Positions 5,942 through 63,724 of a stretch of DNA of 64,000 bases are shown one piece after another. Under the pieces are notes generated by a model, which worked only from the letters and a program-made list of their open reading frames with translations, was not told where the DNA came from and did not search any database. The translations under genes were made by a program, and so were the position numbers. This stretch comes from a virus. The stretch is taken from IMG/VR virus record IMGVR_UViG_3300033565_000026, positions 1-64,000 of that record. One strand, 5' to 3'. Numbering within the stretch: position 1 is the first letter of the stretch; every line of letters starts with the position of its first letter.

Positions 5942-5958
5942 TTCTATTGTAGTATATA
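5942..5958 (+). promoter_or_regulatory. Repeated promoter-proximal element, copy 3 (partial)
   Basis: TTCTATTGTAGTATATA matches copies 1 and 2 at 16 of 17 positions. It is preceded by TTTTTTTGCTG and the TATA-like TTATTTATATGA, as for copy 2. Confidence 0.45.
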
Positions 5959-5971
5959 GGAGCTAATCACA

Positions 5972-6142
5972 ATGGTAAGCGCAAAGAAAGAATACAGATT
6001 ATGGGCATGTCTCAATAACATCACATCTATAATTGAAGTATCTGAATGCTGTAAAGCTTTTGGATTAAGCCAGGATGAAGAAGACAGGGCAATGAGTCTT
6101 TGGGATCACAAGAGAACAATGAGAAGAGTCAGGAGAGCTTAA
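5972..6142 (+). CDS. Small hypothetical protein (56 aa)
   Basis: The ATG lies 9 nt after the GGAG of TAGGAGCTAATCACA. TAA is at 6140-6142 and the next gene starts at 6144. Below the ORF-track cut-off. Confidence 0.5.
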   Translation: MVSAKKEYRLWACLNNITSIIEVSECCKAFGLSQDEEDRAMSLWDHKRTMRRVRRA

Positions 6143-6143
6143 A

Positions 6144-6440
6144 ATGGTTCTTGACTTCACCTTTTTTAATGATTTAAGGAATGCTGAAAAATCAGAATAT
6201 CTCGAAGTTGCAAATAAACACAAACTTTCCCCTCATGATCGTGTTAAAGTTGCAGGTATCTTGAAAGAAGGGAAATTAGAAGAGGAATGGTTTAATCAGC
6301 TTTATGTAATGTGTAAGGGGTGCGGACTTCTTAGGAGCAATGTTATCCTTGAAAAATATCAGATTAAAGAAGACGGAATTGAGGGAAGAATTTTTAAGAG
6401 ATGGGAGGAAGAGGGGAATAGAGGGGAGGGGAATAATTGA
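6144..6440 (+). CDS. Hypothetical protein
   Basis: 98 aa with a Gly/Glu/Arg-rich tail and no motif. Confidence 0.55.
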   Translation: MVLDFTFFNDLRNAEKSEYLEVANKHKLSPHDRVKVAGILKEGKLEEEWFNQLYVMCKGCGLLRSNVILEKYQIKEDGIEGRIFKRWEEEGNRGEGNN

Positions 6441-6645
6441 AGAGGTGCTTAAATTGATTAAAAACTGTAAAAACTGTATCTTCTGGGATCAATTAACCCG
6501 AAATGTAATTTATGGAGAATGTAAATTATATAATAATTTAACTAAAAATGAAGTTAAATATCAAGGAGATTGCTGTTCTGGATGGATTGAAAAAGGTAGT
6601 CTTCCTCCTATTTGTGAAATTGAACTTATAGATAATTTGTGGTGA
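6340..6645 (+). CDS. Small Cys-rich protein (CxxCxFW type); start uncertain
   Basis: The track ORF overlaps 6144-6440 by 100 nt. A GTG at 6445, preceded by GAGGGGAGGGG, would give about 66 aa. CKNCIFW..GECK..CCSGW resembles CTSCKFW..GICV..TCGDY of 15436-15606. Confidence 0.5.
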   Translation: MLSLKNIRLKKTELREEFLRDGRKRGIEGRGIIEEVLKLIKNCKNCIFWDQLTRNVIYGECKLYNNLTKNEVKYQGDCCSGWIEKGSLPPICEIELIDNLW

Positions 6646-6749
6646 ATTATTATTCTTTTTAATTTTATATAATTTTTAAGGGAGTAGTAAGTTATATATA
6701 CTATTAGTTACTTATTACGTAGTAATACGTATTGTATTGAGGTAACTTT

Positions 6750-7520
6750 ATGACAGGTGAGAAAAATAGATACAAAACACATGAACAGTTATGGAAGTTA
6801 GAGGATGGAGATTTAAGCACCCCGCAGCATGATGAGTTAGTTTTGCAACTGCTAAATCATAAAAATTGTTTTAAATTACTAAGTTTTGTTTCTCATATAA
6901 GTGAGTGGGAAATATCAGAGGAGTATCCCAATATTATCTCAAAAGAATTAGTAGAAGCCGTTAAGTATAATGAAACAAATGACGAAATTTTACTTAAAGA
7001 GATGATTTATAACGAATTTAATATGAATACGTTCCCTATTATAAAAAGTGAAGTTCCTGTTACAACAGGAAATAATAAATTTATAATTGGATATATAGAT
7101 GTACAATTTGTAATACCAATAGAAGCTATATGGGAAGTGGATTCCGGAATTAAAAATAGTAATATTTTCGGAGAATACAAAATATTCAAAAAAATAATAG
7201 CACACAACAACCCTTTAAAAATACAATATACTTTAAAATATGATTCTTATTCTTCTGGATATATCTCATATGTAGATAGATCATTAACAGAATTTGGAGA
7301 GAAAAAAGACATAAAATGGACAAAACAGATATTGATAAATATTGAAGTAAAACCCAAAATTAAAAGTTTTGGTGAAACATTAAGACAAATTAATACATAC
7401 AGGGAATGCAATCCAAATGCGTTATATATTTTGTATTCACCAGATGCTAGATTTAAAGACGCTTTTGAAACCCAAGGAGTCAAACTAATCACTCCAAACG
7501 ATATAGGGATTAATATATAA
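6750..7520 (+). CDS. Hypothetical protein, possible PD-(D/E)XK-like fold
   Basis: 256 aa, preceded by GAGGTAAC. GYIDVQF followed much later by INIEVKPK gives a weak D..ExK pattern. The functional call is speculative. Confidence 0.35.
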   Translation: MTGEKNRYKTHEQLWKLEDGDLSTPQHDELVLQLLNHKNCFKLLSFVSHISEWEISEEYPNIISKELVEAVKYNETNDEILLKEMIYNEFNMNTFPIIKSEVPVTTGNNKFIIGYIDVQFVIPIEAIWEVDSGIKNSNIFGEYKIFKKIIAHNNPLKIQYTLKYDSYSSGYISYVDRSLTEFGEKKDIKWTKQILINIEVKPKIKSFGETLRQINTYRECNPNALYILYSPDARFKDAFETQGVKLITPNDIGINI

Positions 7521-7601
7521 TCCCTTTTTTACATGTAAGTAAGTTTTAAATACTTATTCGTTTAATTACGTATTAATACTAATTTAGAGAGAGTGTGATA
7601 A

Positions 7602-7754
7602 ATGCCACCAAAAGGATGGAAAGATATTCCATTAAGAGAAGAAGATTTTCAAGTTATAGAGAAGTTCGCTCAAGACAATGATCTTAAAAATGGTGCGGCA
7701 GTAAAAAGAGCGTTTAAAATTGCCTTTGGGCTAGATTTCCCTAAACATTGCTAA
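7602..7754 (+). CDS. Small ribbon-helix-helix-like protein (50 aa)
   Basis: ATG after GAGAGAGTG. The pattern KDIPLREEDFQVIEKFAQ..AAVKRAFKIAFG fits a strand-helix-helix layout. Below the track cut-off. Confidence 0.4.
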   Translation: MPPKGWKDIPLREEDFQVIEKFAQDNDLKNGAAVKRAFKIAFGLDFPKHC

Positions 7755-7810
7755 AGCATAACTCTAAATAAAATAAACTATATAAAATTGATAATTCGGA
7801 GCTAACATCA

Positions 7811-7885
7811 GTGTATACTTTTTCTTTAAATATCAAACCCTCTACCGGAGGGAGGCAATGTACGAAGAAGAGGCGGGAAAGATGA
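7811..7885 (+). CDS. Possible 24-codon leader ORF
   Basis: A GTG lies 9 nt after the GGAG of TCGGAGCTAA (7796-7805). Its TGA (7883-7885) overlaps, as ATGA, an in-frame Met (7882) of the 7858-8463 ORF. Confidence 0.3.
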   Translation: MYTFSLNIKPSTGGRQCTKKRRER

Positions 7886-8463
7886 TACCTATGATTAAAC
7901 CCGCTAATCCTAAAGTACAGGAGTTCTTGGCGTTATTACAAGATCCTGAAGTCTACGGAGTTTTTAAAGGGTTAGTCATACAATGTTTAACTGATCCAGA
8001 TTGTCTTGTTTTAAAGAGAATTCACAACATAGAATGTCATTTGGGAGTGGATGACGATTATTGTTTATGGGAGGACTCCCTTCAAGAAGACAAAGAAGTA
8101 ATGATGACTATTCCACAGCAGTTTTCTCTTTTATCTGATCGTATTAATGATACGTCAATCCCTGTTCTTCGGGAGTCAATTCTAATTACTGCAAATGAAA
8201 CGGAAGTCAGGGCAAGACTTCTACGTGACAAGCTCGCAACAATCCCTTATCAAAACGGTAAAAAGTTTATGTTAGGAACGGATGTTCAAAAGTTCCTCCT
8301 ACATGAGATTATAGAAGAACATAGAGCCAAAGAGAAGGGGGTAAGACAGATTGCAGCAGATGTAATGAAAAAGACAGTTGAACAATTTCCTAATGAAGTT
8401 AAGATGAGAAAAAACGAGAAAAAAAGAAACGTTATAGAATATATAGAAAGGTTTTACGATTAA
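7858..8463 (+). CDS. Hypothetical protein
   Basis: 201 aa. GGAGGGAGG precedes ATG 7858. An alternative coupled start is at 7882. Confidence 0.65.
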   Translation: MYEEEAGKMIPMIKPANPKVQEFLALLQDPEVYGVFKGLVIQCLTDPDCLVLKRIHNIECHLGVDDDYCLWEDSLQEDKEVMMTIPQQFSLLSDRINDTSIPVLRESILITANETEVRARLLRDKLATIPYQNGKKFMLGTDVQKFLLHEIIEEHRAKEKGVRQIAADVMKKTVEQFPNEVKMRKNEKKRNVIEYIERFYD

Positions 8464-9087: not shown

Positions 9088-9104
9088 TTATCGGAGCTAA
9101 AACA

Positions 9105-9716: not shown

Positions 9717-10024
9717 AAAACTCACCTCAACATTCTAATTTATTATTCAAAATTAAGTATCCTGGCAAAGAAGCATACACATTTCCCACAGGAATAACGC
9801 ATAATTCCCCATGTATGGATCTCTCTCTCAGAAAACAACCTCTCAGAATGGGAACAAAAAGAGAAGAAATAGATAGAGATGAGAAAATAGACGAGGAATT
9901 AATCTAAGGGGTTTTAAGCGATTTAAAATTAAGTTAATACAAATACATTACCCATAAGAAAATAACTTAACTATACGCTTTAAACAGCGTACACAACTAT
10001 TCTAAAAAGATCGGAGCTAACAAT

Positions 10025-13640: not shown

Positions 13641-13691
13641 GAAAACTACTCCTCTCTCGATTACAGAGGAGTTTATGAAGGAAATTATTAA
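13641..13691 (+). pseudogene. Relic 3' end of a second, diverged large-terminase allele
   Basis: It translates to ENYSSLDYRGVYEGNY-stop, against DNYNSPLDYRGVYESSYY-stop at the end of terL (12565-12621). Differences include synonymous codons (L ttg/ctc, R cgg/aga, Y tat/tac). There is no upstream ORF. Confidence 0.6.
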
Positions 13692-13826
13692 TATAATAAC
13701 ACTATTTTACACATATCTGATTGTGATCTATGGGTTTACCCTCCCCCATCTATTTTTTATATTATTATTTTCTATCTACATCCTGAGCCCAATTAAACAC
13801 CGCCGGAACACAAGAGAGGTAATACT

Positions 13827-14231
13827 ATGATAACTGCATATGATGTTTCTGCCGATCTTCTAATAAAAAACGTATCGCAACACTTGAAAATCGAAATTGA
13901 ACCGCCCACATGGGCATTTCATGTTAAAACAGGTCAACACAAAGAATTACAACCCGTTCAGCCGGATTGGTGGTATATTCGTTGTGCGTCAATCCTGAGA
14001 AAAATATATTTTCACGGTCCAATCGGAACGGAGAGGCTAAGATCTGCTTATGGTGGAAAAATAGATAACGGTGTAAAACCTGCACATCATGTTAAGGGCA
14101 GTGGGTCTATTGCTCGCAAGGCAGTCCAACAGCTTGAATCTGTTGGGTATCTTGAAAAATGTAGAGATGGTAGAAGAATTAGTGTGAAGGGTAGGAGTTT
14201 TTTAGATAGAATTGCTTTTGAGGCTGTTTAA
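13827..14231 (+). CDS. rps19e: Ribosomal protein eS19 (S19e)
   Basis: 134 aa. As I recall archaeal S19e, it is colinear with that family over the whole length: [55 protein letters not shown]. It has an SD (GAGAGGTAAT) and its own hairpin plus T-run. None of the usual ribosomal-operon neighbours are present. Confidence 0.85.
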
Positions 14232-40196: not shown

Positions 40197-41219
40197 ATGA
40201 CACCTTTTTTGAGTCAACACGAAGCAATAATCAGCCGTCTCGAATACTTACAAAATAAAGACGGAAAGTTGCATTATTACCCTACTGATGTTTTTCAGAA
40301 ACGGCTTCCTTCATTCAATGATTTAAAAATCATTTATGCGAAGAAACACCCTCCAAAAGGGCTTTACGGCAAACCTCTTGATGAAGTCCTTCAGGAGATT
40401 GAAGGAAAAGTTGTTGGCGAAACGTCAAATTCTTTGATAAATAACACAGGAAGCGACTTTTTAAAGACCGTTTTTAACATCACCGATCCAGACACAGATA
40501 TAAAAATCAAAAACAGAGAGCTTAACCTTTCTTTAGGATTCCGTTACAATGCTCCTGATGTTGGTTCTTTGCTTGATGTGTTTGGCGATCATGTTTTACT
40601 TTATGATAAAGCGTTAGGAATTCCACAAGGAGATCCAGGCGCATTAATTCTAAATCAGGGTTCTCCTGATAGCGAACTTTTAGGCTATTTAGCCGGAAAA
40701 TTCGGAGCTAGTAATATGGTAGATGAACAAAAAAATGAACTCTCGGAAATACTAGGACTCCTGAAAGCAAATCAGGATGAATCTAGTTCTAAAATCATCG
40801 AGAAAGAAACGATGATTCTCAAACTCAATCAAGACGTTGAGAATGGGAAAAATGCTATCCTGAAACTCAATCAGGATCTTGAATCGAAAGATAAGATTAT
40901 TTCTGATTTGCAGGGTGAAATCAACAATCTCAAACAGAAAGCAGTCGATGAAAAGCTCTCTCGCATAAAAGCTAATCAGGAAAACTTCTGGAATGGATTG
41001 CCTGAAGGCATTAAAGAAAAGTTTGCAGGTAGAAAAGCAGAGCTTGAAGACTCTGAACTGTCTTTCAAACTGAATCAGGATATTACAGCCGCCATTCTTG
41101 CAATTCCAAAGCCTGAATTTATGAAAGCGGAAGGCGATACCGCAGTAAAAAACAATCAGGAAACTGATGAAGAAAAAGCAGCAGAAACAGCCTGGAAAGC
41201 TGCAAATGTGAGGCTATAA
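40197..41219 (+). CDS. Scaffolding protein, possibly a prohead protease-scaffold fusion
   Basis: 340 aa. The N-terminal 170 aa or so contain KKHPPKG and NLSLGFRY, resembling the His and Ser-x-Gly-Phe motifs of HK97-type prohead proteases. The C-terminal half is a coiled coil with six K-x-N-Q-D/E repeats. It lies upstream of the decoration-like and capsid genes, as with lambda C/Nu3-D-E. Confidence 0.55.
   Translation: MTPFLSQHEAIISRLEYLQNKDGKLHYYPTDVFQKRLPSFNDLKIIYAKKHPPKGLYGKPLDEVLQEIEGKVVGETSNSLINNTGSDFLKTVFNITDPDTDIKIKNRELNLSLGFRYNAPDVGSLLDVFGDHVLLYDKALGIPQGDPGALILNQGSPDSELLGYLAGKFGASNMVDEQKNELSEILGLLKANQDESSSKIIEKETMILKLNQDVENGKNAILKLNQDLESKDKIISDLQGEINNLKQKAVDEKLSRIKANQENFWNGLPEGIKEKFAGRKAELEDSELSFKLNQDITAAILAIPKPEFMKAEGDTAVKNNQETDEEKAAETAWKAANVRL
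40716..41219 (+). CDS. Nested in-frame scaffold product (internal start)
   Basis: An in-frame ATG at 40716 lies 8 nt after the GGAG of an internal TTCGGAGCTA (40701-40710). This is the same spacing as at other gene starts, and it would express only the coiled-coil half. Confidence 0.45.
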   Translation: MVDEQKNELSEILGLLKANQDESSSKIIEKETMILKLNQDVENGKNAILKLNQDLESKDKIISDLQGEINNLKQKAVDEKLSRIKANQENFWNGLPEGIKEKFAGRKAELEDSELSFKLNQDITAAILAIPKPEFMKAEGDTAVKNNQETDEEKAAETAWKAANVRL

Positions 41220-46844: not shown

Positions 46845-47174
46845 ATGGACTTTCCTGATACCGTTCAAATCTCTAAATTCTCAAGTGAAGACGTATACGG
46901 AAAACGAACATACCAAACGGCAACCACATCAAAAGCGAATGTTCGCAGTTTCATAAAGAATTTAAAGGATTTTAGAGGAAATGAACTTTTATCTTCCGCT
47001 TGGGTTGCGTTACCGAGAGGGTCTTCGATTGCCTATAATGATAAAATCACTCTTGCAGACGGTTCAACCCCTTACATAGGTTCAATCGCAGAAAGGAAGA
47101 GTCCCGTATCACATCGAATAGAATATATAGAAGTTTATGTTGGAAGGGCTGCACCCGGGGAAGGTTCGTTATGA
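46845..47174 (+). CDS. Head-closure / head-tail adaptor protein
   Basis: 109 aa. TVQISKF..EDVYGKRTY...ANVR and a late ..I..I.. pattern are typical of SPP1 gp16-like proteins. Confidence 0.5.
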   Translation: MDFPDTVQISKFSSEDVYGKRTYQTATTSKANVRSFIKNLKDFRGNELLSSAWVALPRGSSIAYNDKITLADGSTPYIGSIAERKSPVSHRIEYIEVYVGRAAPGEGSL

Positions 47175-47545
47175 CGGCTGCTGAGTGTATTACTAATACT
47201 GCAATAATCTCAAAATTAATGTGGGAAGCAGGAAAAAAAGCAGTCGATGAAACAACACACGAAATATTCCTTATCTCAACTGAGAATTTCTGTCCTGTAG
47301 ACACTGGAGCTTTAAAAGCATCCGCAAAAGAAACAGTAAAAGAAGACTCAGGAGAAGCATACACAAAAGAAATCTCATATGGAAATTCAGAAGTAAACTA
47401 TTCCTGGTGGGTTCACGAACTCCCATATAGACATTATAACCCTCCAAATGCTCAAAACAAGTATCTCGAAGTCCCTCTTAACCTTTACTCTGATAAACTA
47501 CAAAAAAACGTATCAATCGAGGTGAGTGGAGTAATTGACAATTGA
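47171..47545 (+). CDS. HK97 gp10-like neck/tail-completion protein
   Basis: 124 aa. The PVDTGALKAS motif is characteristic of the HK97 gp10 family. Confidence 0.55.
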   Translation: MTAAECITNTAIISKLMWEAGKKAVDETTHEIFLISTENFCPVDTGALKASAKETVKEDSGEAYTKEISYGNSEVNYSWWVHELPYRHYNPPNAQNKYLEVPLNLYSDKLQKNVSIEVSGVIDN

Positions 47546-47918
47546 AACATATCTTACTGATTTATCGACATTCCTACAAACAAATGGAGTGAGTGGTATT
47601 TCAATTGCAGGTTATCACGATTCATCAGGAAATGCCGTGTTTATCACTCCGTACGGAGGGAAAGAGTATGATAAGATAGTATCTGGTGAAATTAACCCGT
47701 ATATGATAGATGTTCAAGTTATCACTAGAAATTCTAGTAATGAAACAGCATACGCTTTATCAATTTCAATTTATAAACTGTTAAGAAATATTTCAAATAG
47801 AATAATTGGAACTACAGAATTTAAATCAATAAAAGCGAAAGCTTCCCCTGCTTTCATTATGAAAACAAATAGCGGGTATTATCAGTATTCAGTTAATTTT
47901 TCAATGTTAATTCAATAA
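47535..47918 (+). CDS. Tail terminator-like protein
   Basis: 127 aa with a TTG start after GAGGTGAGTGGAG. It lies just before the major tail protein gene. Confidence 0.35.
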   Translation: MTIETYLTDLSTFLQTNGVSGISIAGYHDSSGNAVFITPYGGKEYDKIVSGEINPYMIDVQVITRNSSNETAYALSISIYKLLRNISNRIIGTTEFKSIKAKASPAFIMKTNSGYYQYSVNFSMLIQ

Positions 47919-47933
47919 TTCGGAGCTAAAAAC

Positions 47934-48650
47934 ATGACTTATGTGAATTCTCAAGCAACTGTAGCTAGAGGTGTAACTGTAAGTATTACTCCTTCGGGTG
48001 GAGTACTTTCACTAATTGCAGAAATTACAGACGATGGCGTTCCAATGCCTCAAACTTCGGTGGACGATATCGAAGTTACCAATCAAGATTCTGGTGATTG
48101 GAAGGAATACAAAGCCGGAAGAAAAGACGGAGGAGAAACCGAAATCAAAGGAAATGCTGTAGATGGTGATGTTGGTCAAGCAGCTTTGGCAGCAGCAGCC
48201 GCATCAGGGACGACCTGCCTATTCATTACAACGTTCCCGTCTGGATCGTCACAGTCTTTCTATGGAGTTGTAAAAACTTTCGATCATGTAGTAGATGGGC
48301 AAATTCTCAAATTTAGTGCGAAAGTGAAAGTTACAGGTGCTCCTACGTTCTCAACTACAAAGAGTGCGCTTACTGCTCTTTCTGTTACAGGCCAATCTAT
48401 ATTCCCTGTGTTTGCAGGAACCACGTACAAGTATGTCTGTAATGTAGTAGCAGCAACAGAAACAGCAGTAGCTGTTCCCACATGTTCAGGTGCAACAATT
48501 ACCGTCAATGGTACAACTGTCGCAAGTGCTGGAAATGGTTCCGTAACTCTTGGAGCAGCAGGAACACTTACTGAAATTAGCATAGTTGTTAAAGAAACAA
48601 GCAAAGCAGCCGTAGTATACACTATTCAGGTCGCTAGGGCTGCATCATAA
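47934..48650 (+). CDS. Major tail protein with a C-terminal Ig-like domain
   Basis: 238 aa. The ATG lies 8 nt after the GGAG of TCGGAGCTAA. EVTNQDSGDWKEYKAGRKDGGETEIKGN resembles TP901-1-type tail tube proteins. The C-terminal 90 aa or so are a beta-rich Thr/Val/Ala domain. Confidence 0.6.
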   Translation: MTYVNSQATVARGVTVSITPSGGVLSLIAEITDDGVPMPQTSVDDIEVTNQDSGDWKEYKAGRKDGGETEIKGNAVDGDVGQAALAAAAASGTTCLFITTFPSGSSQSFYGVVKTFDHVVDGQILKFSAKVKVTGAPTFSTTKSALTALSVTGQSIFPVFAGTTYKYVCNVVAATETAVAVPTCSGATITVNGTTVASAGNGSVTLGAAGTLTEISIVVKETSKAAVVYTIQVARAAS

Positions 48651-48661
48651 GGGGTGTTAGA

Positions 48662-48991
48662 ATGACTCTAAAAGAAATTCCCCTTATTGGAGAATATGCA
48701 CTCCGCTATGATTGGGCTGGATTTGAAGCAATGATGGAAGCTTTAGAAGCTCCATCTTTTTCAGATTTTGATAAAGGTTTCTCAAAACTTGGTCCTCGAT
48801 CTGTTAGAATGATGGTGTGGGCTGGACTCCTGCACAAATTCCCTCTCTTAAAAAAGGAAGAAGTTGCCGGAATCATAACTTCCTATCTTGAGAATAATTC
48901 TCTTGAATCGCTTACGGCTGTACTAAATAAAGCATTATTAGAAGGAAACATTCTCACAAGTTCAGCAGGTGAAAAAACAGAGGGAAACTAA
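48662..48991 (+). CDS. Tail assembly chaperone (gpG-like)
   Basis: 109 aa and acidic. It lies between the major tail and tape measure genes and carries an A6 slippery run 12 nt before its stop. Confidence 0.6.
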   Translation: MTLKEIPLIGEYALRYDWAGFEAMMEALEAPSFSDFDKGFSKLGPRSVRMMVWAGLLHKFPLLKKEEVAGIITSYLENNSLESLTAVLNKALLEGNILTSSAGEKTEGN

Positions 48992-49335
48992 CTGTTACAG
49001 AACTTATAGAAGACGTTCAAAAAGCATTCTATAAGTTCTGTAAGGTTGACCCTATTTCTTTTTGGAAATATACGCCTGCTGAAACCTCATTAATGATTGA
49101 TGTAGCAATCGAAACGCAAAACGAAGAAACAGATCTTACTTTACATCTTGAAGCTCGCCTTTGTGCTGTCATAATGAATGCCAACGGAGCAAAAACCGAA
49201 AACAGAGAACGTTTTGAAATGAAACACTTTTTACCAGACGAAAGAAGATCAACTCAAAAAATGACTCCTGAACAATATGAATACGCATTGAGGATGAAAA
49301 CGATTTCAGCCGGTGGAACTGTAATTTATCAATAA
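48973..49335 (+). CDS. -1 frame extension of the chaperone (gpT-like part of a G-T fusion)
   Basis: The -1 frame is open from 48973, just after the GAAAAAAC run, through to 49335. Its first ATG is 40 codons in (49093). Confidence 0.5.
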   Translation, partial: KNRGKLTVTELIEDVQKAFYKFCKVDPISFWKYTPAETSLMIDVAIETQNEETDLTLHLEARLCAVIMNANGAKTENRERFEMKHFLPDERRSTQKMTPEQYEYALRMKTISAGGTVIYQ

Positions 49336-49347
49336 CGGTGTTAAAAA

Positions 49348-52017
49348 ATGGCTCAAGAAGTCGGTGGAATATACGCTACAGTCGGCTTAAAAAGTACAAT
49401 CTCTGCCGACCTCTCTAAAATTTCAGCAGGGTTTTCAGCAACACAATCAAAAATATCAGGTATTGCTAGTGGGTTGTCTGGAAGTCTGCAAAAAGGATTC
49501 TCTGGGATTGCCAACGTTACGGGCATAACCACATCGTTAAAATCATTAGAATCAACTTCTAAAAATCTACAATCAAAATTAGGTTTTGCAGGAACGGCAG
49601 CACTAGCCGGAATATCAGCCGGACTTGTAAAAATTGGCTCTGATGCTTCTCAGACATACATGAAATTCGATGACAGCATGAGAAAGGTTTCTGCTGTCAC
49701 TTCTGCAACAGATGAGGAATTTACAGCACTTACAAAAACTGCAAAAACGTTAGGTGCTACTACATCTTTCACGGCTCAGGAATCAGCCGAGGCTATGATA
49801 TTTTTAGGACAGGCCGGATTTAACGCAGGTCAAATCATGGCAGCAATGCCAGCTACTCTGGATCTTGCCAGAGGATCAATGACAGGACTTGCAACAACAG
49901 CAGATATAATGTCTAATATAATGAATGGATTTCAAATCCCTGCCCAAAATACAGCATATGCGGCTGATATCCTGGCAGCAGCAGCCAATAAAACGAATAC
50001 AGACGTAACCGGACTAGGCGAAGCAATGAAATATGCGGCTCCACTGGCTCATCAGATGAAATGGAGCTTAGAAGAGACAGCCGCAGCAGCAGGATTGCTT
50101 TCAAACGCCGGTATTAAATCCAGTATGGCTGGAACTGTAATTAGAAACTCTATTACTCGTCTTATATCCCCCACCAACAAAGTCGTTGGAATCCTGAAAG
50201 GATACGGGTTAACTATCGACATGGTAAACCCCAAAACAAAGAACCTTGCAGATATTCTTGACACATTAACAGCAGCAGGTGTAACGTCTGCTGATATGAT
50301 GGAAATATTCGGGATGCGTGCTGGTCCTGGTATCATGGCTCTATTAAATCAGGGAACTCCTGCTTTGAGAGCAATGACCGCAGAACTGCAAAACAGCGAA
50401 GGGTACGCAAAACAAGCAGCCGAAGAAATGGATAAAGGATTTGGTGGAGCAGTCCGGGAAGCACAAAACGCAATCGAAGCATTACAACTTTCATTAGGTC
50501 AGGCGATTTCTACGGTAGCAACTCCTTTTTTAAGAGCCTTTGCTCTCATCGGGAAAGTTATAGCTGCAATTCCTCAGTCAATTCTAGTTGCAGTCGCGGC
50601 TATGGGTTCATTAGTTGCTGTTGGATTAGCTGTTACAGTTGCATTAGCCGGAGCAGAAATTATAATAGGTGCTCTTACAACAGCAGCAGGACTTTTAGGG
50701 TTAACAATAGGTGCAGCTTCGGGAATAGTTCTTGGTATTGGTGCTCTTGTAGCTGTTCTTTACGAATTGGAAGAAAGGACAGGAGTAATAAGTTATTCTT
50801 GGAGACTCTTAAAAGATTTATTCACAATCACAGCAGACGGTATCAAAAAAGCTGCAATAATACTATGGGATGTTATTGTTAAAGTTGCATCCGGTATTAA
50901 ACAGGCTATAATAGATATGTTTCCTCCTGGCTTTCTTGAAGGTGTTGGAAAAGCAATAGATAAAATTAGTGCTCAATTTTCAAGTATGGGAGACAACATT
51001 CACGAACAAGCGGAAGGGATACGAGACGATAACGAAAAAGCCAAACAGTCAGTAGATGCACTCTCAAACATAGATGCAACCGGAACTAAATCTGAACTAT
51101 CCTCAATGGATACTCTTGTCGGTAGCTTAGGGGGAACAACACAGAGCACGACAGAGGACATGTCAACCCTCCTTAATATGCAAGATGAATCAACAGGGGA
51201 AAGCTTAGATTCAATAAGTTCGGGGCTTACCGATATTTCAGCAACTGGAACAGATGCAAACAGTGTGTTATCTGATACCGGAACCGTTGATTACTCCGCA
51301 ACAATAGACGGAATAAAAAATACAGATAGTACAATGCAGACTGCAAAAAGCACAGCTTCGGATCTTTTTTATATCATTTCTGATGCTGGAAATGTGAGAA
51401 TGGGTGAAACAAACGCTCAACTTGTAAGCATTGATGAAAGCGGGAAACAAACAAATCTAACACTTTCAGAATTGAAGGAAATCGCGTCTGATGCTGGTAA
51501 TACTAGCATGGCAGGAACAATAGGACAGATTGCTCTTGTTGACGCTCAAGGAAAAGCCTCTAATCTCACAACTCAGCAGGCAGTTACTCTTTTACAAAAC
51601 GCAGGAAATCAGCCGATGTCAGGGACTGTAACAGGCTGGACTAATGTATCAACCGCAATAAAAACGGCAGTTGGTGACGTAGGCAAATTTATTACCGTCA
51701 ATGATAGCGTTGTTGAGTCGATAAGCAAGATAGGAGCCGCATATAAAACAACCGCTGCGATGGTTGGAAATGTTTCAGGTTTAGCGGGTAAATGGAATTT
51801 AGACGCAAAATTAGGCACAACTAAAAGTAGTGGAAGTAGTTCTGGAACTGGTACTGTGAAAGTAATTTCGAACCCAAATATGTATACTCAAGGGGAATTG
51901 GACTCAAGAACTCATAATAAAGCACCTTCTACTACTGTAAATGTGGGAACTGTGAACAATTATGGAAACGCTGTAAATCAAACGAAAACTAAACTATCTG
52001 TACTCTCTGGAGGCTAA
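49348..52017 (+). CDS. Tail tape measure protein
   Basis: 889 aa. It has a TP901-type core (TSFTAQESAEAMIFLGQAGF..TTADIMSNIMNGF..LGEAMKYAAP..AAAAGLLSNAGIKSSMAGT), a central hydrophobic Ala/Gly/Val tract, and a Ser/Thr-rich tail. Confidence 0.9.
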   Translation: MAQEVGGIYATVGLKSTISADLSKISAGFSATQSKISGIASGLSGSLQKGFSGIANVTGITTSLKSLESTSKNLQSKLGFAGTAALAGISAGLVKIGSDASQTYMKFDDSMRKVSAVTSATDEEFTALTKTAKTLGATTSFTAQESAEAMIFLGQAGFNAGQIMAAMPATLDLARGSMTGLATTADIMSNIMNGFQIPAQNTAYAADILAAAANKTNTDVTGLGEAMKYAAPLAHQMKWSLEETAAAAGLLSNAGIKSSMAGTVIRNSITRLISPTNKVVGILKGYGLTIDMVNPKTKNLADILDTLTAAGVTSADMMEIFGMRAGPGIMALLNQGTPALRAMTAELQNSEGYAKQAAEEMDKGFGGAVREAQNAIEALQLSLGQAISTVATPFLRAFALIGKVIAAIPQSILVAVAAMGSLVAVGLAVTVALAGAEIIIGALTTAAGLLGLTIGAASGIVLGIGALVAVLYELEERTGVISYSWRLLKDLFTITADGIKKAAIILWDVIVKVASGIKQAIIDMFPPGFLEGVGKAIDKISAQFSSMGDNIHEQAEGIRDDNEKAKQSVDALSNIDATGTKSELSSMDTLVGSLGGTTQSTTEDMSTLLNMQDESTGESLDSISSGLTDISATGTDANSVLSDTGTVDYSATIDGIKNTDSTMQTAKSTASDLFYIISDAGNVRMGETNAQLVSIDESGKQTNLTLSELKEIASDAGNTSMAGTIGQIALVDAQGKASNLTTQQAVTLLQNAGNQPMSGTVTGWTNVSTAIKTAVGDVGKFITVNDSVVESISKIGAAYKTTAAMVGNVSGLAGKWNLDAKLGTTKSSGSSSGTGTVKVISNPNMYTQGELDSRTHNKAPSTTVNVGTVNNYGNAVNQTKTKLSVLSGG

Positions 52018-52020
52018 AAA

Positions 52021-55000
52021 ATGACAGTTCAAACGATTTATGTAACGTATTCCGGGGGGTCAATGGATGGCACTCATTATACGGCAGATGGCACTAATGA
52101 CCAAGACGCTATTAATAGTGCTTTGAATCTTGCAAGTGCCAACCCGGGGTCTACTGTAATAATGCGAGGGCCCCACACATATAATATTAGAGATCAAATC
52201 AAAGTTGGATCATCAACTACATGGACTGCTGAATCAGGAGTAATACTAAAAGTTCCAGATTATGCTTGTGGAGGGAGCGTGACTTATGGAACATCTGGGG
52301 CTTGGTGTGCTTTTCCAGATGGGTCTGGAGTTATTACAAAATTAACTACTACTGTAACGGGCATTGAAATATATGGTTTCGAGATTGACGGAAATTGTCA
52401 GCACCAATATACGAAACTGGGGCTGGCACACGGAACGCCTTCTTCTGCTGGTTCAGGAGTAGAGAGGCTTATTCAATTTCAAGGGAGTTCTGGATATGAG
52501 TGTCAGGATATTAATATCCATGACATGAATATCCATGACGCTTTCGGGGAAGCGTTACAGGTTACATTTTGTAAAAATGTTAGATTTCACGATAATATAT
52601 GCAGTAACCACCAACATGAAGGAGTTTATTATAAAGCAATAACCGGAAGCGGAAACGCAATTTATAACAATTCCATAGCCGGAATAACTAGCGGTTGTAT
52701 TCGTTGTGATTCATGCCAGAATGTCAATATTTATGATAATGACTGTACTTCTTATGATGGACCCAATAATAACGGAGCACCTAAATTTGGTCATTCTGGA
52801 ATGCAGATCGCAAATAACGCTTCTTATTCAATCCTTACAAATAATATTAATGTTTATAATAATACCATTTCAGGTCCGAATGTCGCGGGCATCTGGATGA
52901 ATGATGTCAAGAAGACAGCCGGGACAAATGCACAGACTGTCAATATATATAATAATACAATTAATAATGGATGTGGTTGGGCTTCTTGGGCTTATTGGAG
53001 TGCAGGAATTGGCATTCAGTGGGGTAATGGTCTTACTATAGAATACAATGATTTTGATGGCTGTTACTGTCATACAATATTGATTTATGGAAATATCACG
53101 TCCTCGGCAACTTCTATAAAAATTAATAATAATAATATAAAAAACACTCGTGCTAATAGGGATGGAACTACACCCACTGACGGGAGTACACCTAAATATA
53201 CAACCCCTGTTGGGTATGGGATTTGTAATGTAAAATCCACAACAGTCACGGCTGCCATATCATATACTTATTTTTCCGGAAATCTAAAAGGTCCAATTTA
53301 TCCTACAAATTTAATTCATACTAACGATGTTACTACCCTAAACGGATTAAAACCTGGAACTTCTACAGGTGGAAGTACAGGGGGAGGGAGTACAGGAGGT
53401 GGGACAACTGGAGATGTACTTCCAGAAATTCCCGTCAGGTACATCCCCCAAAATAGAGCAGTTAGAGAATCTTTAGCGGAATATTTCTTAAGAGATTATA
53501 CAGTCTATGACGAAAATAATAGAGAGATTACAGCCTATATAAATCAGTATCCTTTAAGAATTGTAGGATTCTCCAAAAAGACTACTAAAGTGATAGCTTC
53601 AAACAAGCCTCCTGGTATTGATGGCGTAAATTTGGGAGACTTCGGTTTTGAAGGTGGATCTTTTACTGTTACATGTAGGGTAAGCTCCTTAGACGATGCG
53701 TGGCAGCAAATTTCAGCTTGGAAGCGGAGAAGTCCGGCTATTCTTGAGCCTGGTGGAGTTTATTCAGGTTGGTTCCTCTCAGGAATAATGACTACTCCTG
53801 AATCTGATATCAGGTTTAATTCTGAAGAAGTACCCGAAAGAGGGTTTACATATACAGTTCAGTTTGAAACTGATACACCATTTTTTAGAAGTACTACCGA
53901 AAGAATAAGAAGTCGAAAAATAACAAATAGTTTGCAATGGTCTGCTGATGACATATATACAGGAAATCAGTTATCAAATCCTTCTTTAGAATCGTGGCTC
54001 GCGGGAATGGAAGACGTAGCGCCGGATAGATGGAATTATGAAACTGCTGGAATGCAGATGTCAGGAGAAACCGCACATGATGGAGCCAACAGCGTACTAA
54101 TTACAGGAAACGGGACTGATGCAGATAGAGGAAGCTTTTCTCAGCCTGTCAAATTAGAAGCAGGCTTTAGTTATCTTCTATCTGCATATGGTGCGGTTTC
54201 AGGACTCACACAAGGGCAATTAGTTGTTGAGCTTGAAGCAGGCGGAGGGGTTGTATCTCAATTAGTTTGGGATGACGTGATGGATTGGTATCAGCAACAG
54301 ATTATAATCACGCCTTCCCTAAATATGTATGATGCAGTCGTAAGAGTACACCTGATAGGAACCGCTAACGCTGAAGCTCTTGTTTATTGTGACGATATGT
54401 ACTTTGGGAGAATGGCAGATATTGAAATTGCTGCATTAGGGAACAGTATTCAGACACTCGGATATGAAGACGCGATTCCTGATTTTGAAGTGAGTGCGGT
54501 CCAGATGTCGAACGTAACTTCCTCAACTGAAACGGCAGGAGTCCAGGCAACAAATGTAAATAATGGAGCAAGTACGGCAAATTCGTATAGTACAACTTAT
54601 ACAACTTGGAGACTTGTTTTGACTACATCACTTCCTCAACTATCGGGAGGAGGAAAATACAGAATAGATCAAGTTTCGTGTACCCTCGCGGCTTATGTGG
54701 ATACGACTTACAAAGCATATTTAGAGCCTAGGTTATATGCTCCTTCTCTGAATGGAGGAGTAGAGCAGGCATTGGCTACCGGATGGGAAACCACTTCATT
54801 AACAGCCGTTGCTTTTTCTGAGGATATTACAGGCAAGACCTCAGCAAATGAAGCCATTGAAATAAGATGGTATGCAAAAGTTGAAAATAATTCAAATGGA
54901 CATAAAGCAGTCCCTAAATTATTAACCGTCAAATATACACCCCTCACAACATCAACAGCATATAGTTATGTCGCGGGAACTCAAGTAGTGACCACAAGAG

Positions 55001-56052
55001 ATGACGAAGACGCGACAAATGCTACATCTTTCACAGCATTATATACTCAAACTATTCCAGCACTCTCAAATAATGCTACGTGTAGGCTGGATGGATTATC
55101 TGCACAATTAGCTGTTAGTGTTAGCGGGAACACGGCAACTATGCAAGTAACGGCTCAGGCTACGGGCTGGCAGGGAGGGGCTGAAACTGTAATTGTAGGT
55201 CCCTGGGCTGCAACTTCTGTAGATCCGAGTTTTACAACGAAATCATCAGTTAGCAGCCAAACTAATTTTGGGAACGGCCCGGTTACAATAAAATGGTATC
55301 TCAAAAGCACTACTGGGACTGATGCGTCTTGCAGAAATATGACTATTAAATACACCCCGATGATTCCACAGAGCGCACCTGATCTAGATGCCGGAAGCGC
55401 AACTATTTCAATCTATAATGTGGATGATCCAACAGTCGTTCTTGATATGTGTAATACTTTATTACCTAAATGTAAATTCGCAATCAATAGCGATTATTCA
55501 GGCTCTTTTGAAATGTCAGAGGATTTTTCTGATAATCTATACAGTTCTATAATTACAGATAATGGGTCCACAACTCCGGTTTATTCAGCAGCGAATAGAA
55601 CTTTAGAACTTCCAGCAGGATCATATTTAACATATCTTTTTGACACTAAATATTCAGTTACCGGAAAGCCATTTATTCAAGTTTTTGTGGTGTCAGGTAT
55701 CCCTCAGATGTGGATTGCAGACTATGACCCAATAACAAAGGGACCTGTTGAATGGTATGCAGCAGACAGCAACACGGCAACAGCATTAGAGGACACGGCA
55801 ATTTATAGAGAGCTTGATAACGCTGCCAATCTTTCCCTCGCTGGAAAATCAAAATATTTCGTCTGTATAAAACCACCCACGAGTGGAACTTGCACAATCG
55901 GCTCTATTTATCATTATGCTGATCTAGTTACTATGGATGCTCCGAGACCTAAAATTTTCGCAAATGGTGGTGTAAATACTTTTGCAGCGATCTTAAACGG
56001 GAATCCTTGTATCGTCACAATTAGGTATCGGGATACTAACATGGTGATCTAA
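52021..56052 (+). CDS. Giant distal-tail (Dit-like) fusion protein
   Basis: 1343 aa in four parts: an N-terminal beta-helix domain, a GGSTGGGSTGGGTTG linker (53355-53412), a Dit-like segment (YPLRIVGFSKK..LGDFGFEGGSFTVTC) with a CBM-like insertion, and two tandem domains of about 140 aa each. The tandem domains end in IRWYAK..LTVKYTPL and IKWYLK..MTIKYTPM. Confidence 0.6.
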   Translation: MTVQTIYVTYSGGSMDGTHYTADGTNDQDAINSALNLASANPGSTVIMRGPHTYNIRDQIKVGSSTTWTAESGVILKVPDYACGGSVTYGTSGAWCAFPDGSGVITKLTTTVTGIEIYGFEIDGNCQHQYTKLGLAHGTPSSAGSGVERLIQFQGSSGYECQDINIHDMNIHDAFGEALQVTFCKNVRFHDNICSNHQHEGVYYKAITGSGNAIYNNSIAGITSGCIRCDSCQNVNIYDNDCTSYDGPNNNGAPKFGHSGMQIANNASYSILTNNINVYNNTISGPNVAGIWMNDVKKTAGTNAQTVNIYNNTINNGCGWASWAYWSAGIGIQWGNGLTIEYNDFDGCYCHTILIYGNITSSATSIKINNNNIKNTRANRDGTTPTDGSTPKYTTPVGYGICNVKSTTVTAAISYTYFSGNLKGPIYPTNLIHTNDVTTLNGLKPGTSTGGSTGGGSTGGGTTGDVLPEIPVRYIPQNRAVRESLAEYFLRDYTVYDENNREITAYINQYPLRIVGFSKKTTKVIASNKPPGIDGVNLGDFGFEGGSFTVTCRVSSLDDAWQQISAWKRRSPAILEPGGVYSGWFLSGIMTTPESDIRFNSEEVPERGFTYTVQFETDTPFFRSTTERIRSRKITNSLQWSADDIYTGNQLSNPSLESWLAGMEDVAPDRWNYETAGMQMSGETAHDGANSVLITGNGTDADRGSFSQPVKLEAGFSYLLSAYGAVSGLTQGQLVVELEAGGGVVSQLVWDDVMDWYQQQIIITPSLNMYDAVVRVHLIGTANAEALVYCDDMYFGRMADIEIAALGNSIQTLGYEDAIPDFEVSAVQMSNVTSSTETAGVQATNVNNGASTANSYSTTYTTWRLVLTTSLPQLSGGGKYRIDQVSCTLAAYVDTTYKAYLEPRLYAPSLNGGVEQALATGWETTSLTAVAFSEDITGKTSANEAIEIRWYAKVENNSNGHKAVPKLLTVKYTPLTTSTAYSYVAGTQVVTTRDDEDATNATSFTALYTQTIPALSNNATCRLDGLSAQLAVSVSGNTATMQVTAQATGWQGGAETVIVGPWAATSVDPSFTTKSSVSSQTNFGNGPVTIKWYLKSTTGTDASCRNMTIKYTPMIPQSAPDLDAGSATISIYNVDDPTVVLDMCNTLLPKCKFAINSDYSGSFEMSEDFSDNLYSSIITDNGSTTPVYSAANRTLELPAGSYLTYLFDTKYSVTGKPFIQVFVVSGIPQMWIADYDPITKGPVEWYAADSNTATALEDTAIYRELDNAANLSLAGKSKYFVCIKPPTSGTCTIGSIYHYADLVTMDAPRPKIFANGGVNTFAAILNGNPCIVTIRYRDTNMVI

Positions 56053-61333: not shown

Positions 61334-61356
61334 AAAAACACCTTAAAAAAAGAAAA

Positions 61357-61773
61357 TTAGTTGGTTCTTGTTGAAACCAACTTACCTTGAGAATTATAAA
61401 TTTTTGCTGTTTCACCTTTGCAGGATAAAATTGCTCCGTTTGTACCGAGCGAATAAGCACCTGGGACTTTTCCTGTATAGATCCATATACTCTTGCAGGA
61501 TTTGAGAGTTACAGCAGGAAGATTATAACGAACTTCCTTAGAACACCCTGCGCACTTCAGGCCAACTTTCCATCCCTTTAAATTAACAGGAGAATAAAGT
61601 CCATTAGTGATCTTGATATATTCCTTTCCTGAACATTGCATGTAAGAAACGCATACAGTTTTTGAACACGTTGAACATGATTTACAACTCGATCCTGAAC
61701 ATGCTGCCATAGAAGGAGATACGAAGGACAGCATTAGCATAGCTCCGATTAATAAAATTAGATATTTTTTCAT
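61357..61773 (-). CDS. Secreted Cys-rich protein with a lamin-tail-domain-like segment
   Basis: 138 aa with a signal peptide and CSGSSCKSCSTCSKTVC. EYIKITN..VNLKGWKV..LKSCKSIWIYTG..GETAKIYNSQGKLV fits the LTD pattern. Confidence 0.5.
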   Translation of the reverse strand: MKKYLILLIGAMLMLSFVSPSMAACSGSSCKSCSTCSKTVCVSYMQCSGKEYIKITNGLYSPVNLKGWKVGLKCAGCSKEVRYNLPAVTLKSCKSIWIYTGKVPGAYSLGTNGAILSCKGETAKIYNSQGKLVSTRTN

Positions 61774-61938: not shown

Positions 61939-62172
61939 TTAAAATTTGAATCCATACTCTTCAAGAGGATGCTTTTCTTTTTTAAGTTCCAAGCCTTTAA
62001 TCACTTTCTTAGCTACTCTGAATTCTTTCCTCACTCCCAAATGATAAAAATTTACAGCATTTTGCATGTCTTCAAGAATTAGGACATCTCCGGCGGGTAT
62101 GCCTAAAGAATCGGGTATCTCGAATATTGGCAATTCGTAAATATCGTTAAGTGTGGGTATATTTAGTTTCAT
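61939..62172 (-). CDS. Hypothetical protein
   Basis: 77 aa. The ATG lies 8 nt after the GGAG of TTCGGAGCTAACAAA. Confidence 0.55.
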   Translation of the reverse strand: MKLNIPTLNDIYELPIFEIPDSLGIPAGDVLILEDMQNAVNFYHLGVRKEFRVAKKVIKGLELKKEKHPLEEYGFKF

Positions 62173-62198
62173 TTTGTTAGCTCCGAATTATTTTAAAA

Positions 62199-62540
62199 TT
62201 ATAGTTTAATTATATCTTTAATCTGTTTTAACTTTTCAGTAGACAAGCTATTAAATTTAATTTTAGATATATAATTAAGTAATTCTAATCTTATCCCCGC
62301 TTCTAAAACCTCATCTGTAATCTTAACTAGACAATCACTAATACCCATACTCATTCTTGAATCCCCTCTCGGGAGTCTGCCATCTCTAAACTTCTCAAGA
62401 TATCCAGATACTTTAATTTGGCGAGTAGGAGTTATCTTCTCAATAGTTACTATAGTATATGATTTAGTGCCGTAATAGTTATGTTCTACTGCAACTTTAT
62501 CACCATCTTTTAAAGAGGAGAGCCATTCATTATCTGTCAT
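62199..62540 (-). CDS. Hypothetical protein
   Basis: 113 aa. The start overlaps the upstream stop (TAATG). Confidence 0.55.
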   Translation of the reverse strand: MTDNEWLSSLKDGDKVAVEHNYYGTKSYTIVTIEKITPTRQIKVSGYLEKFRDGRLPRGDSRMSMGISDCLVKITDEVLEAGIRLELLNYISKIKFNSLSTEKLKQIKDIIKL

Positions 62541-62716
62541 TATTCATCCGCCTTCTTTATAAAAAGATATACCTCTCTTCCTGCGTACTCTTCCCCTACT
62601 GCCGGAATTCTCCCTTGAGAATCAACTTTTCCGATAAATCCTTTTGAGAAGGATTCAGGGCGTATGGTAATATCAGGGATTAGAGGGAGATCATTAAGGT
62701 TTTTTCGGCGGGGCAT
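62540..62716 (-). CDS. AbrB/SpoVT-like small protein (58 aa)
   Basis: GKVDSQGRIPAVGEEYAGREVYLFIKK fits the swapped-hairpin pattern. The ATG lies directly after the upstream TAA. Below the track cut-off. Confidence 0.45.
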   Translation of the reverse strand: MPRRKNLNDLPLIPDITIRPESFSKGFIGKVDSQGRIPAVGEEYAGREVYLFIKKADE

Positions 62717-62941
62717 TTAGACCCCCCTTTTCCCATAAGTCGATAATTTAAATTCGATTACAGTATTTTTGAATGCCCTAACTTCATTTTCCATGTTTAC
62801 AATTTGTTCAAGCAGAGAATTATAGCTATTTTTATCATCATCCTCTGGAATTTCATTAATCAAATTTCTAATTTCATCAAGTGAGTTCCTAAGTGAGATT
62901 ACGTCATCTTGTAACAAATCTTTTGAATTTATATCAAACAT
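62717..62941 (-). CDS. Hypothetical helical protein
   Basis: 74 aa, preceded by GAGGTTTAGAA. Confidence 0.5.
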   Translation of the reverse strand: MFDINSKDLLQDDVISLRNSLDEIRNLINEIPEDDDKNSYNSLLEQIVNMENEVRAFKNTVIEFKLSTYGKRGV

Positions 62942-63057
62942 TTCTAAACCTCTTATAACTCAGTATATAGTAATAGATCACATATTATTTAAAGTTTATG
63001 ATCTATTTTGAGTTTAGCCTATTTTAACAATTTAAACAACTCACAAAAAAAAGAAAA

Positions 63058-63468
63058 TCATTCCTTATACTCAACATTCTTACTAATCCAATCCAAATAC
63101 CCAGATTCAAAAGGTTTTCCAGTATATCTATAATATACAATATTAGGATTGACCTTACTGTCCTTTTTCAATAGATACCCTTTTGTGACAAGAGCCTCAA
63201 GAGTCACGGCAATAACTCTTTTAAGCTCACAAACTGGAAACCATCTTCCGTGGTATACTGTATCCAATTCTAATATTTGATTTAATGCCCCCTTCTGTGC
63301 AGCCGTTAATCTCGTTTTACAGTCCTCCTCTACATGGAGGTATGTTTCTTCCTTATCAGTCATATATTTATTTTCCTGCGGTTCTTGATATTCAGAATCC
63401 TTGCATTCTTGACATTGTGTATAGTATGTTAATGTAAAATCGTGATATATATCAAGAATAAAAGTCAA
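63058..63468 (-). CDS. Winged-helix-like protein; start uncertain
   Basis: The track ORF starts at a TTG (63468). ATG 63363 would give 101 aa. ..LNQILELD..CELKRVIAVTLEALVTKGYL is wHTH-like. Confidence 0.45.
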   Translation of the reverse strand: MTFILDIYHDFTLTYYTQCQECKDSEYQEPQENKYMTDKEETYLHVEEDCKTRLTAAQKGALNQILELDTVYHGRWFPVCELKRVIAVTLEALVTKGYLLKKDSKVNPNIVYYRYTGKPFESGYLDWISKNVEYKE

Positions 63469-63633
63469 CCTAAAAAAATATTCTTATTTACATTTTCAGA
63501 AAAATTAATATATCCCTTGAACATTGTAGATTATGGACTTCTAAAGTTTTCAAAAAACAGGCATTTTAAAGACATTATTCTAAAAAACAGTATTCTTCTA
63601 TCAGACACACCCCTTAATTCCAGGTGGCGAGTA

Positions 63634-63724
63634 CAGGAGTGAGAAACCGGCTCGGAGCTAATCGAGTTTGACCGGTCACTCCTGATTACAAGCTCCGAAT
63701 TCTGGTAAACTATGAGCTTGTAAT
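63634..63724. other. Two adjacent long hairpins, each carrying a GGAGCT motif copy
   Basis: Hairpin 1 pairs CAGGAGTGA (63634-63642) with TCACTCCTG (63676-63684), plus inner CCGG/CCGG and CTCG/CGAG pairs around GAGCTAAT. Hairpin 2 pairs ATTACAAGCTC (63685-63695) with GAGCTTGTAAT (63714-63724). A T-rich tract follows. Confidence 0.5.

Follow-up and report, generated by a model that had tools for sequence, protein, structure and literature searches.

The virus record IMGVR_UViG_3300033565_000026 of IMG/VR (72,696 bp; hereafter G0, also G000), whose first 64 kb form the window analyzed here (64,000 nucleotides), carries a short motif, the box (A/T)TCGGAGCTA(A/T), ahead of the start codons of about 17 of its genes. 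A non-coding gap of the same genome encodes a hairpin that displays at its apex the complement of this box, and in the two other viruses with a rigid box the apex complements the variant of its own genome. On these grounds, we propose that the box is a weak Shine-Dalgarno (SD) site targeted by a virus-encoded antisense small RNA (sRNA), for which the hairpin is the candidate, and that this RNA would mask the ribosome-binding site. We regard this reading, which is drawn from sequence analysis, as having about an even chance of being correct.

A recurrent 10-nt motif placed before start codons had been claimed in the original prediction for this window, and the claim is borne out. With at most one mismatch, TCGGAGCTAA is found at 15 window sites, as compared with 2.7 ± 1.8 in shuffled sequences (maximum 7; none of 100 shuffles reaches 15); the coordinates agree with those first reported within 1-2 nt, and one copy, at 61739-61748 on the minus strand, is to be added. 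In the whole of G0, the core CGGAGCTA is present in 20 copies where a Markov-1 model expects 0.72. An ATG follows 3-6 nt after the core in 15 of these 20 copies, the offset being 5 nt in 10 cases, 6 nt in three, 4 nt in one and 3 nt in one, whereas a random position has an ATG 2-8 nt downstream with a background probability of 0.12 (binomial p = 1.4e-10). At most sites, 8 nt separate the last G of GGAG from the ATG, a distance within the usual SD range (about 5-10 nt), and every start-associated copy lies on the coding strand of the gene it serves. The consensus can be written (A)(A/T)TCGGAGCTA(A/T). Among 24 aligned G0 sites and 15 aligned sites of the related virus G3, no sequence information above background is found upstream of position -5 relative to the box; thus, no promoter element (TATA or B recognition element) stands at a fixed distance. 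As seen in the information-content profile, the likeness between G0 sites stops at about 12 nt, with the exception of one pair (7796/62177). Beyond the window, start-associated copies are located at 64651(-), 65036(-), 66018(-), 66303(+) and 67360(+). Copies without a start role include 43219 and 45942, both inside genes, and 63652(+) and 63690(-), which fall in a non-coding region. The window hit at 1688 (TCGTAGCTAA) was dismissed as a chance match.

G0 (G+C about 35%) encodes a structural set comprising the large terminase (TerL), a major tail protein, a tape-measure protein and a major-head-like protein, together with two archaeal markers, an Orc1/Cdc6 initiator and an intact, archaeal-type ribosomal protein S19e (window 13827-14231, plus strand; Pfam 7.7e-53). 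Among 185,579 species genomes, the best matches of this S19e are from Methanosarcina and other Methanosarcinales (60-63% identity). Moreover, the DUF1699 family, of which G0 has a member, counts 9-21 copies in each of three Methanosarcina-type genomes, with identities of up to 57%. G0 is thus an archaeal tailed virus (a siphovirus), and the S19e matches, the DUF1699 protein and a disaggregatase-related domain point to Methanosarcina or a close relative as its probable host. The 3' ends of 16S rRNA were taken from one Methanosarcina and one Methanolobus genome as candidate hosts, and read GGAUCACCUCCU. The GGAG of the box pairs with the CUCC of this tail. On the 3' side of GGAG follow a C-C mismatch, one U-A pair, another mismatch and one A-U pair. 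On the 5' side, the C of the TC flank is opposite the terminal U of 16S, and the T extends past the end of the rRNA. Hence, both C's next to GGAG are mismatched, and only GGAG, plus an isolated U and A, pairs with the rRNA, as had been supposed at the outset.

In the provisional gene map, most other G0 genes have ordinary SD sites that use many registers of AGGAGGTGATCC (GAGGT, AGGTGA, GGTGAT, AGGAGGT). Such variability in the virus's own genes argues that the anti-SD of the host is canonical. The predicted pairing with the 16S tail amounts to -6.0 ± 0.6 kcal/mol for box-led leaders versus -7.6 ± 2.9 kcal/mol for the others. Box-led genes thus lack the variable register and length of SD sites that answer to rRNA only; they show one rigid 10-mer and a uniform pairing energy, and this rigidity is not what rRNA pairing by itself would select. 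A translation enhancer, one of the roles first put forward, finds no support in these weaker and more uniform pairings, whereas the accompanying claim that the flanks are conserved beyond rRNA pairing is upheld by the mismatched C's and by the host genomes. In five Methanosarcinaceae, the box followed by ATG occurs 0-5 times per genome of 2-4.3 Mb, the same as a control pattern, so that a general host type of ribosome-binding site was rejected. Pairing elsewhere in 16S was rejected as well, since neither AGCTCC nor a longer complement of the box is present in the two candidate-host 16S genes. Host paralogues of DUF1699 share a different leader (…AGTGGGGGAAAA…), from which it follows that the viral copy has been fitted with the viral box. 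As a separate observation, these host paralogues (loci L351-L362, in Methanosarcina-type genomes) carry the leader …c/aAGTGGGGGAAAA(t)… about 2-4 nt before ATG, a family-specific start-site box of the host.

Relatives of G0 were collected from IMG/VR as contigs found by a TerL search; those compared include G3 (also L008; 75 kb, TerL 63% identical to that of G0), G2 and G10-G14. In GenBank phages, no megablast match to a 9-kb structural stretch (window 47000-56000) was obtained. A de novo scan for 8-mers upstream of open reading frames (ORFs) recovered a rigid box in G0, G3 and G12 only, and a looser, weak GGAGCTTG in G2. The same scan gave no box in G13, in G14 or in the two genomes rated complete, G10 and G11; in these, only ordinary SD sites were seen, and the more distant TerL relatives L004-L007 have no box either. 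In G3, the box is GAACGGAGCTA, with the flank GAAC in place of (A/T)TC; the core CGGAGCTA occurs 15 times, as against 1.0 expected, and 12 copies stand before ATG. The box of G12 is GAACGGAGCA, sometimes …GCT. Scans of IMG/VR for TTCGGAGCTAA…ATG and GAACGGAGCTA…ATG returned almost only single chance hits among the matches listed.

The box is retained in orthologues having only 41-55% protein identity, each time with the flank typical of its own genome; this concerns the major tail protein, DUF1699, the beta-helix protein and a nested start. At the start of the major tail protein, 13 relatives all have an SD at the same spacing, the sequence of which differs by lineage (GAAGGAG, CGAGGT, ACAGGAGCT, GAACGGAGCA, GAACGGAGCT, TTCGGAGCT). 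The boxes of paralogous sites within one genome thus resemble each other more than do orthologous boxes between genomes, and this calls for a genome-specific reader acting in trans. In G3, three box-like copies are also clustered on both strands within 220 nt (about 13,690-13,910), at the edge of the portal/scaffold region and with no proper start (a TTG only, after the 13,906 copy). This cluster may mark a second site, regulatory or structured.

A listing of the box copies that lack a start codon brought the hairpin to light: in each box virus, one such copy is located in a non-coding gap and runs antisense to the genes on either side. The three hairpins were judged one by one, a MAFFT/RNAalifold alignment being misaligned and uninformative. 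In G0, the gap measures 430 nt and is bounded by genes 63900-64637 and 63058-63468, both on the minus strand. On that strand, hairpin 2 of the candidate sRNA (63634-63684; minimum free energy -22.5 kcal/mol, z = -4.1) is built of a lower stem of 9+4 bp, an inner stem of 4 bp and a loop of 8 nt. Together, the loop and the adjoining start of the 3' arm (63652-63661) have the sequence UUAGCUCCGA, which is perfectly complementary to the 10-nt box UCGGAGCUAA. In a predicted 150-nt RNA, seven loop bases of this anti-box are unpaired with a probability of at least 0.98. Hairpin 1 (63687-63724, minus strand, z = -5.6) has in its 3' arm a box-like sequence of the G2 type (…GGAGCTTGTAA) that pairs with an exact complement in the 5' arm; this box type (GGAGCTTGTAA) is used by no G0 gene. 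For the region of both hairpins on the minus strand, z is -4.4 over 131 nt. A putative transcription unit can be drawn at about 63580-63760 on the minus strand, both ends being conjectural, with a TATA-like A/T-rich stretch at about 63745-63755, hairpin 1, hairpin 2 and a T6 run at about 63582-63587.

The G3 hairpin occupies the syntenic place: on one side are box-led minus-strand genes (45-47 kb), on the other the G0 63058-63363 homologue. Its apex is UUAGCUCCGUUC and U5 comes directly after. That of G12, with apex UUUGCUCCGUUC, lies just downstream of the homologue of a 245-aa gene of G0. Both are well folded (z = -4.6 in G3 and -4.5 in G12), and their lower stems are wholly different in sequence while the architecture is kept; apical loops have 7-8 nt in all three viruses. 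The layout is also common to G0, G3 and G12: upstream gene, T-run, A/T-rich stretch with an AATA(A/T)ATATA-like element, hairpin 1, hairpin 2 and T-run. The TATA-like element, 70-100 nt upstream, and the T-runs downstream are on the strand of the flanking genes. As far as can be judged from sequence, this layout would be that of a small archaeal transcription unit. A scan of IMG/VR with a 15-mer from the non-coding region of G3/G12 gave G3 and G12 as the only relevant returns. With Rfam, the sole hit in 63400-63950 was at chance level (E = 0.33, 18 bits versus a gathering score of 47) and outside the hairpins. Relatives without the box have no homologous non-coding region and no box hairpin; in G13, L464 and L465, the homologue of the 245-aa gene is followed directly by coding sequence.

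In each of the three viruses, the hairpin apex complements the box of its own genome (TC…CTAA in G0, GAAC…CTAA in G3, GAAC…CAAA in G12). At start-associated GGAGC sites, the contiguous complementarity to the own apex extends over 9-11 nt in G0, 8-13 nt in G3 and 9-14 nt in G12 (means 8.9-10.2), whereas other GGAGC sites have mean values of 5.6-5.9, that is, the core only. The complementary start-associated sites number 17 in G0, 13 in G3 and 10 in G12, and they overlap the SD. Departures from the consensus are informative. At the two G0 starts without the TC flank (5959 and 40062), the match gains ATC on the 3' side, which occurs at none of the eight flank-bearing sites. At G3 47877, the 3' TA is missing but AGTT is added on the 5' side, where 8 nt are matched, exactly up to the lower stem. 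Deviant boxes thus compensate by pairing further on the other side. The predicted duplex with the apex has a mean energy of -17.6 kcal/mol for box-led leaders versus -7.7 kcal/mol for the others, with no overlap between the two distributions (U = 0, p = 4e-11).

Taken as a mechanism, these features would combine as follows. The box (A/T)TCGGAGCTA(A/T) would be a minimal SD of 4 bp (GGAG, 8 nt before ATG) inside a 9-12-nt sRNA target. Transcription of the minus strand of the gap, at about 63,580-63,730, would yield the candidate sRNA, which would fold into the two hairpins, the apical loop of the second displaying the exact complement of the box. With a predicted pairing of about -17.6 kcal/mol, against about -6 kcal/mol for the 16S tail, the RNA would bind the box more strongly than the ribosome does. 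Pairing would cover the SD of about 17 viral mRNAs, including those of the major tail protein, the nested scaffold-like product, the disaggregatase-like beta-helix protein, DUF1699 and many small proteins. The box genes would thereby respond as a single set, the simplest case being repression through masking of their ribosome-binding sites. We propose that conservation of the flanks reflects pairing with the sRNA and not with the ribosome. The locus of the candidate regulator lies 0.4-58 kb from the box sites, in the same genome, and its action would be exerted in trans. A binding site for a regulator, which the original prediction had listed among the possible roles of the motif, remains the best fit of those roles, although the candidate regulator is an RNA hairpin with a box-complementary loop and not a protein. 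For an RNA-processing site, the third of those roles, the evidence speaks neither for nor against.

If this holds, a methanogen virus would have its tail, scaffold and cell-envelope-degrading genes, along with many small ones, under the control of one 10-nt seed, and a compact orthogonal translational switch would be at hand for methanogens, among which Methanosarcina is genetically tractable. To our knowledge, post-transcriptional control in archaeal viruses is almost unexplored. In the literature searched on small RNAs and start-site motifs of archaeal viruses, no virus-encoded trans-acting sRNA with a defined regulon turned up for an archaeal virus. A bolder version can be imagined, in which a private "box and seed" translation switch acts on about 15-20 viral mRNAs, the box/seed pairs diversify from one related virus to another like immunity specificities, and the G2-type seed of hairpin 1 could serve cross-interference between co-infecting viruses. 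We view this extension as rather improbable.

Several points weigh against an antisense RNA. Given that the search started from startless copies, "the loop complements the box" and "the other strand carries a box copy" are the same fact, and the antisense reading is favored solely by orientation, the T-runs, the TATA-like element and the register shifts. All stems are purely Watson-Crick, and because G-U pairs are lacking, pairing does not tell which strand folds. The last three anti-box bases are themselves paired in the inner stem. The compensation argument concerns only 2-3 sites per genome, and the comparison only three viruses, kin by descent, with about two independent co-variation events. 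Finally, the box gene set mixes structural genes with small, presumably early ones, so that no single temporal logic is evident. In a rival reading that we consider rather unlikely, a viral protein recognizes GGAG and its flanks on the mRNA and binds or cleaves there, as a translational repressor or activator comparable to T4 RegA or as an endoribonuclease comparable to T4 RegB, and the hairpin is an operator or decoy copy. The rigid sequence and spacing, the genome-specific variants and the absence of the box from host genomes would all suit such a reader, a box copy at a hairpin apex could be a high-affinity site, and T4 provides a precedent with an 11-nt SD-containing site, GGAGRAYARAA, on many phage mRNAs (PMC1702504). 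It should, however, be noted that the hairpin copy is antisense to local transcription, and that Pfam and PHROGs scans of about 50 of the 128 provisional ORFs revealed no candidate RNA-binding protein or nuclease. The phyletic profile yields no RNA-binding candidate either; apart from structural proteins, a thymidylate-synthase-like enzyme alone is restricted to the three box viruses. RegB sites, moreover, almost never have C at position 5, where the C of the box is invariant. The deviant sites, finally, hold their total complementarity by a shift of register, which base pairing predicts and a fixed protein site does not.

The box may otherwise be an ordinary SD with passenger flanks, belonging to a promoter/ribosome-binding-site cassette copied by recombination, the hairpin being an unrelated terminator with a chance copy. 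The spacing is in the normal SD range, and plain SD variants occupy the orthologous position ahead of the major tail protein in other relatives, which indicates that SD function is the conserved part. The sites 7796 and 62177 even have about 40 nt upstream in common. Beyond that one pair, however, similarity ends at about 12 nt, and ribosome-binding selection would not be expected to leave an invariant mismatched C on each side of GGAG. The greater likeness of paralogous boxes within a genome than of orthologous ones would require concerted selection beyond descent, and a matching copy stands at the apex of a syntenic hairpin in all three box viruses and in none of the box-less relatives; we therefore find passenger flanks unlikely. 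A last alternative places the reader at the DNA level: the box would be a promoter-proximal element or operator, lying between TATA and a transcription start near the ATG of leaderless or very short-leader mRNAs, and would be read by a viral transcription factor. About half of the box genes do come after intergenic gaps of 100-300 nt, and at 7796 and 62177 a TATA-like octamer is positioned for a start near the initiation codon. Nevertheless, the 24 G0 and 15 G3 sites show no TATA at a fixed distance, at least seven boxes are within 5-30 nt of the upstream gene or inside it, and one box lies within a coding region, where it serves a nested internal start and is kept in G2. These features make a DNA element very improbable.

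Among known systems, the SD itself shares with the box the GGAG core, 8 nt before ATG and complementary to the CUCC of the canonical tail. The box differs from it in being invariant over 10-12 nt in each genome, in changing between related viruses and in having flanking C's that mismatch the rRNA. A precedent for a masking sRNA is offered by Methanosarcina mazei, in which sRNA162 masks a ribosome-binding site (PMC3510493). There too, a single-stranded sRNA region is complementary to the ribosome-binding site, and the host genus is likely the same. However, sRNA162 is a host RNA with few, partially complementary targets, whereas the candidate here is viral and predicted, with a perfect match over 9-14 nt and about 17 targets having one box. 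In the halovirus phiH, the Tant antisense RNA leads to the loss of a ribosome-binding site from an early transcript (PMC4284463), again an archaeal virus with an antisense RNA affecting such a site. Tant is encoded in cis, opposite a single target, whereas the candidate RNA would act in trans on many. T4 RegB and RegA also rely on an extended SD-containing motif on many phage mRNAs, read by a phage factor beyond the ribosome; RegB sites, in contrast, avoid C at positions 5-6 and need no upstream flank, and S1 is bacterial (PMC1702504), position 5 of the box being an invariant C. No RegB- or RegA-like gene was found among the G0 proteins scanned. In bacteriophages P1 and P7, the C4 antisense RNA is described as controlling Ant synthesis (Citron & Schuster 1990, cited in PMC8201110). 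The likeness is that a phage-encoded small RNA pairs with a target on a phage mRNA; C4 acts on one operon of a bacterial phage, whereas the targets considered here are dispersed over the genome of an archaeal virus. Between P1 and P7, the C4 RNA and its target reportedly show matched changes, a parallel to the TC, GAAC and CAAA variants.

Within the window, the boxes of the plus strand begin with a variant, TAGGAGCTAA(TC), at 5957-5966, which has no TC flank and serves ATG 5972 (56 aa), its match to the hairpin being lengthened on the 3' side to 10 nt in total. Boxes at 9091-9100 and 10011-10020 serve ATG 9105 (78 aa) and ATG 10025 (77 aa; zinc-ribbon matches weak and below Pfam's cut-offs), and that at 47920-47929 serves ATG 47934 of the major tail protein. 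A box at 40702-40711 serves an internal ATG, 40716, and hence a nested 167-aa product in the frame of the 340-aa ORF 40197-41219; the G2 orthologue has GGAGCT at the same place. On the minus strand, boxes at 31200-31209 and 33301-33310 serve ATG 31194 (95 aa) and ATG 33298. The latter starts a 451-aa beta-helix protein with a disaggregatase-related domain (gene 31943-33298), the G2 orthologue of which likewise has GGAGCT. The ORFs beginning at 31218 and 33319, the longest-ORF starts, run through these boxes and are indeed over-extended, as had been suspected from the first. The box at 34374-34383 serves ATG 34370 of the 132-aa DUF1699 protein (gene 33972-34370), whose orthologues in G3 and G2 retain their own box variants. 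Further along, GCGGAGCTAA at 34625-34634 serves ATG 34620 (47 aa), and the variant TTGGAGCTAA(TC) at 40055-40064, whose TC flank is missing and whose hairpin match is extended 3', serves ATG 40050 (79 aa). The box at 61739-61748, the addition mentioned above, serves ATG 61734 of a 125-aa protein with a lamin-tail domain, and that at 62177-62186 serves ATG 62172 (77 aa). For annotation, the box corrects the start codons 31194, 33298, 9105 and 61734 and marks the nested internal start 40716.

Some copies serve no start. The major tail protein, the beta-helix gene and the internal ATG of the scaffold gene are served as stated, whereas the full box at 7796-7805 (plus strand), in the leader of gene 7858-8463, has no proper start and is followed by a GTG frame of only 24 codons. 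The core CGGAGCTA at 40190-40197 (plus strand) is fused to ATG 40197; with zero spacing, it is not usable as an SD for that ATG. The copies 63652(+) and 63690(-) are non-coding. The sequences 7755-7805 (plus strand) and 62186-62230 (minus strand) are alike over about 40 nt ahead of the box (TAAACTATA…ATAATT), where a TATA-like octamer occurs, and to judge by this likeness the pair looks like a duplicated promoter-plus-box cassette. The nested arrangement 40197-41219/40716 resembles the protease/scaffold nesting of HK97-like phages.

Other features of the genome may be mentioned. A tRNA-Gly(UCC) gene of 80 nt (window 39571-39650, minus strand) adjoins a divergent region with two box-led genes. 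In the whole of G0, the 82 ORFs of at least 80 aa end with TAA (50) or TGA (32) and never with TAG, even though TAG trinucleotides are common (1781, both strands). This absence is compatible with a Methanosarcinales host that uses pyrrolysine, or with TAG being read as sense. The gene map treats TAG as a stop; readthrough would shift some ORF ends, not the box statistics. Finally, the thymidylate-synthase-like gene at G0 67582-68295 (plus strand; L350 7582-8295; Pfam 6e-11), which among the relatives compared is confined to the three box viruses, may reflect modified DNA bases in these viruses.

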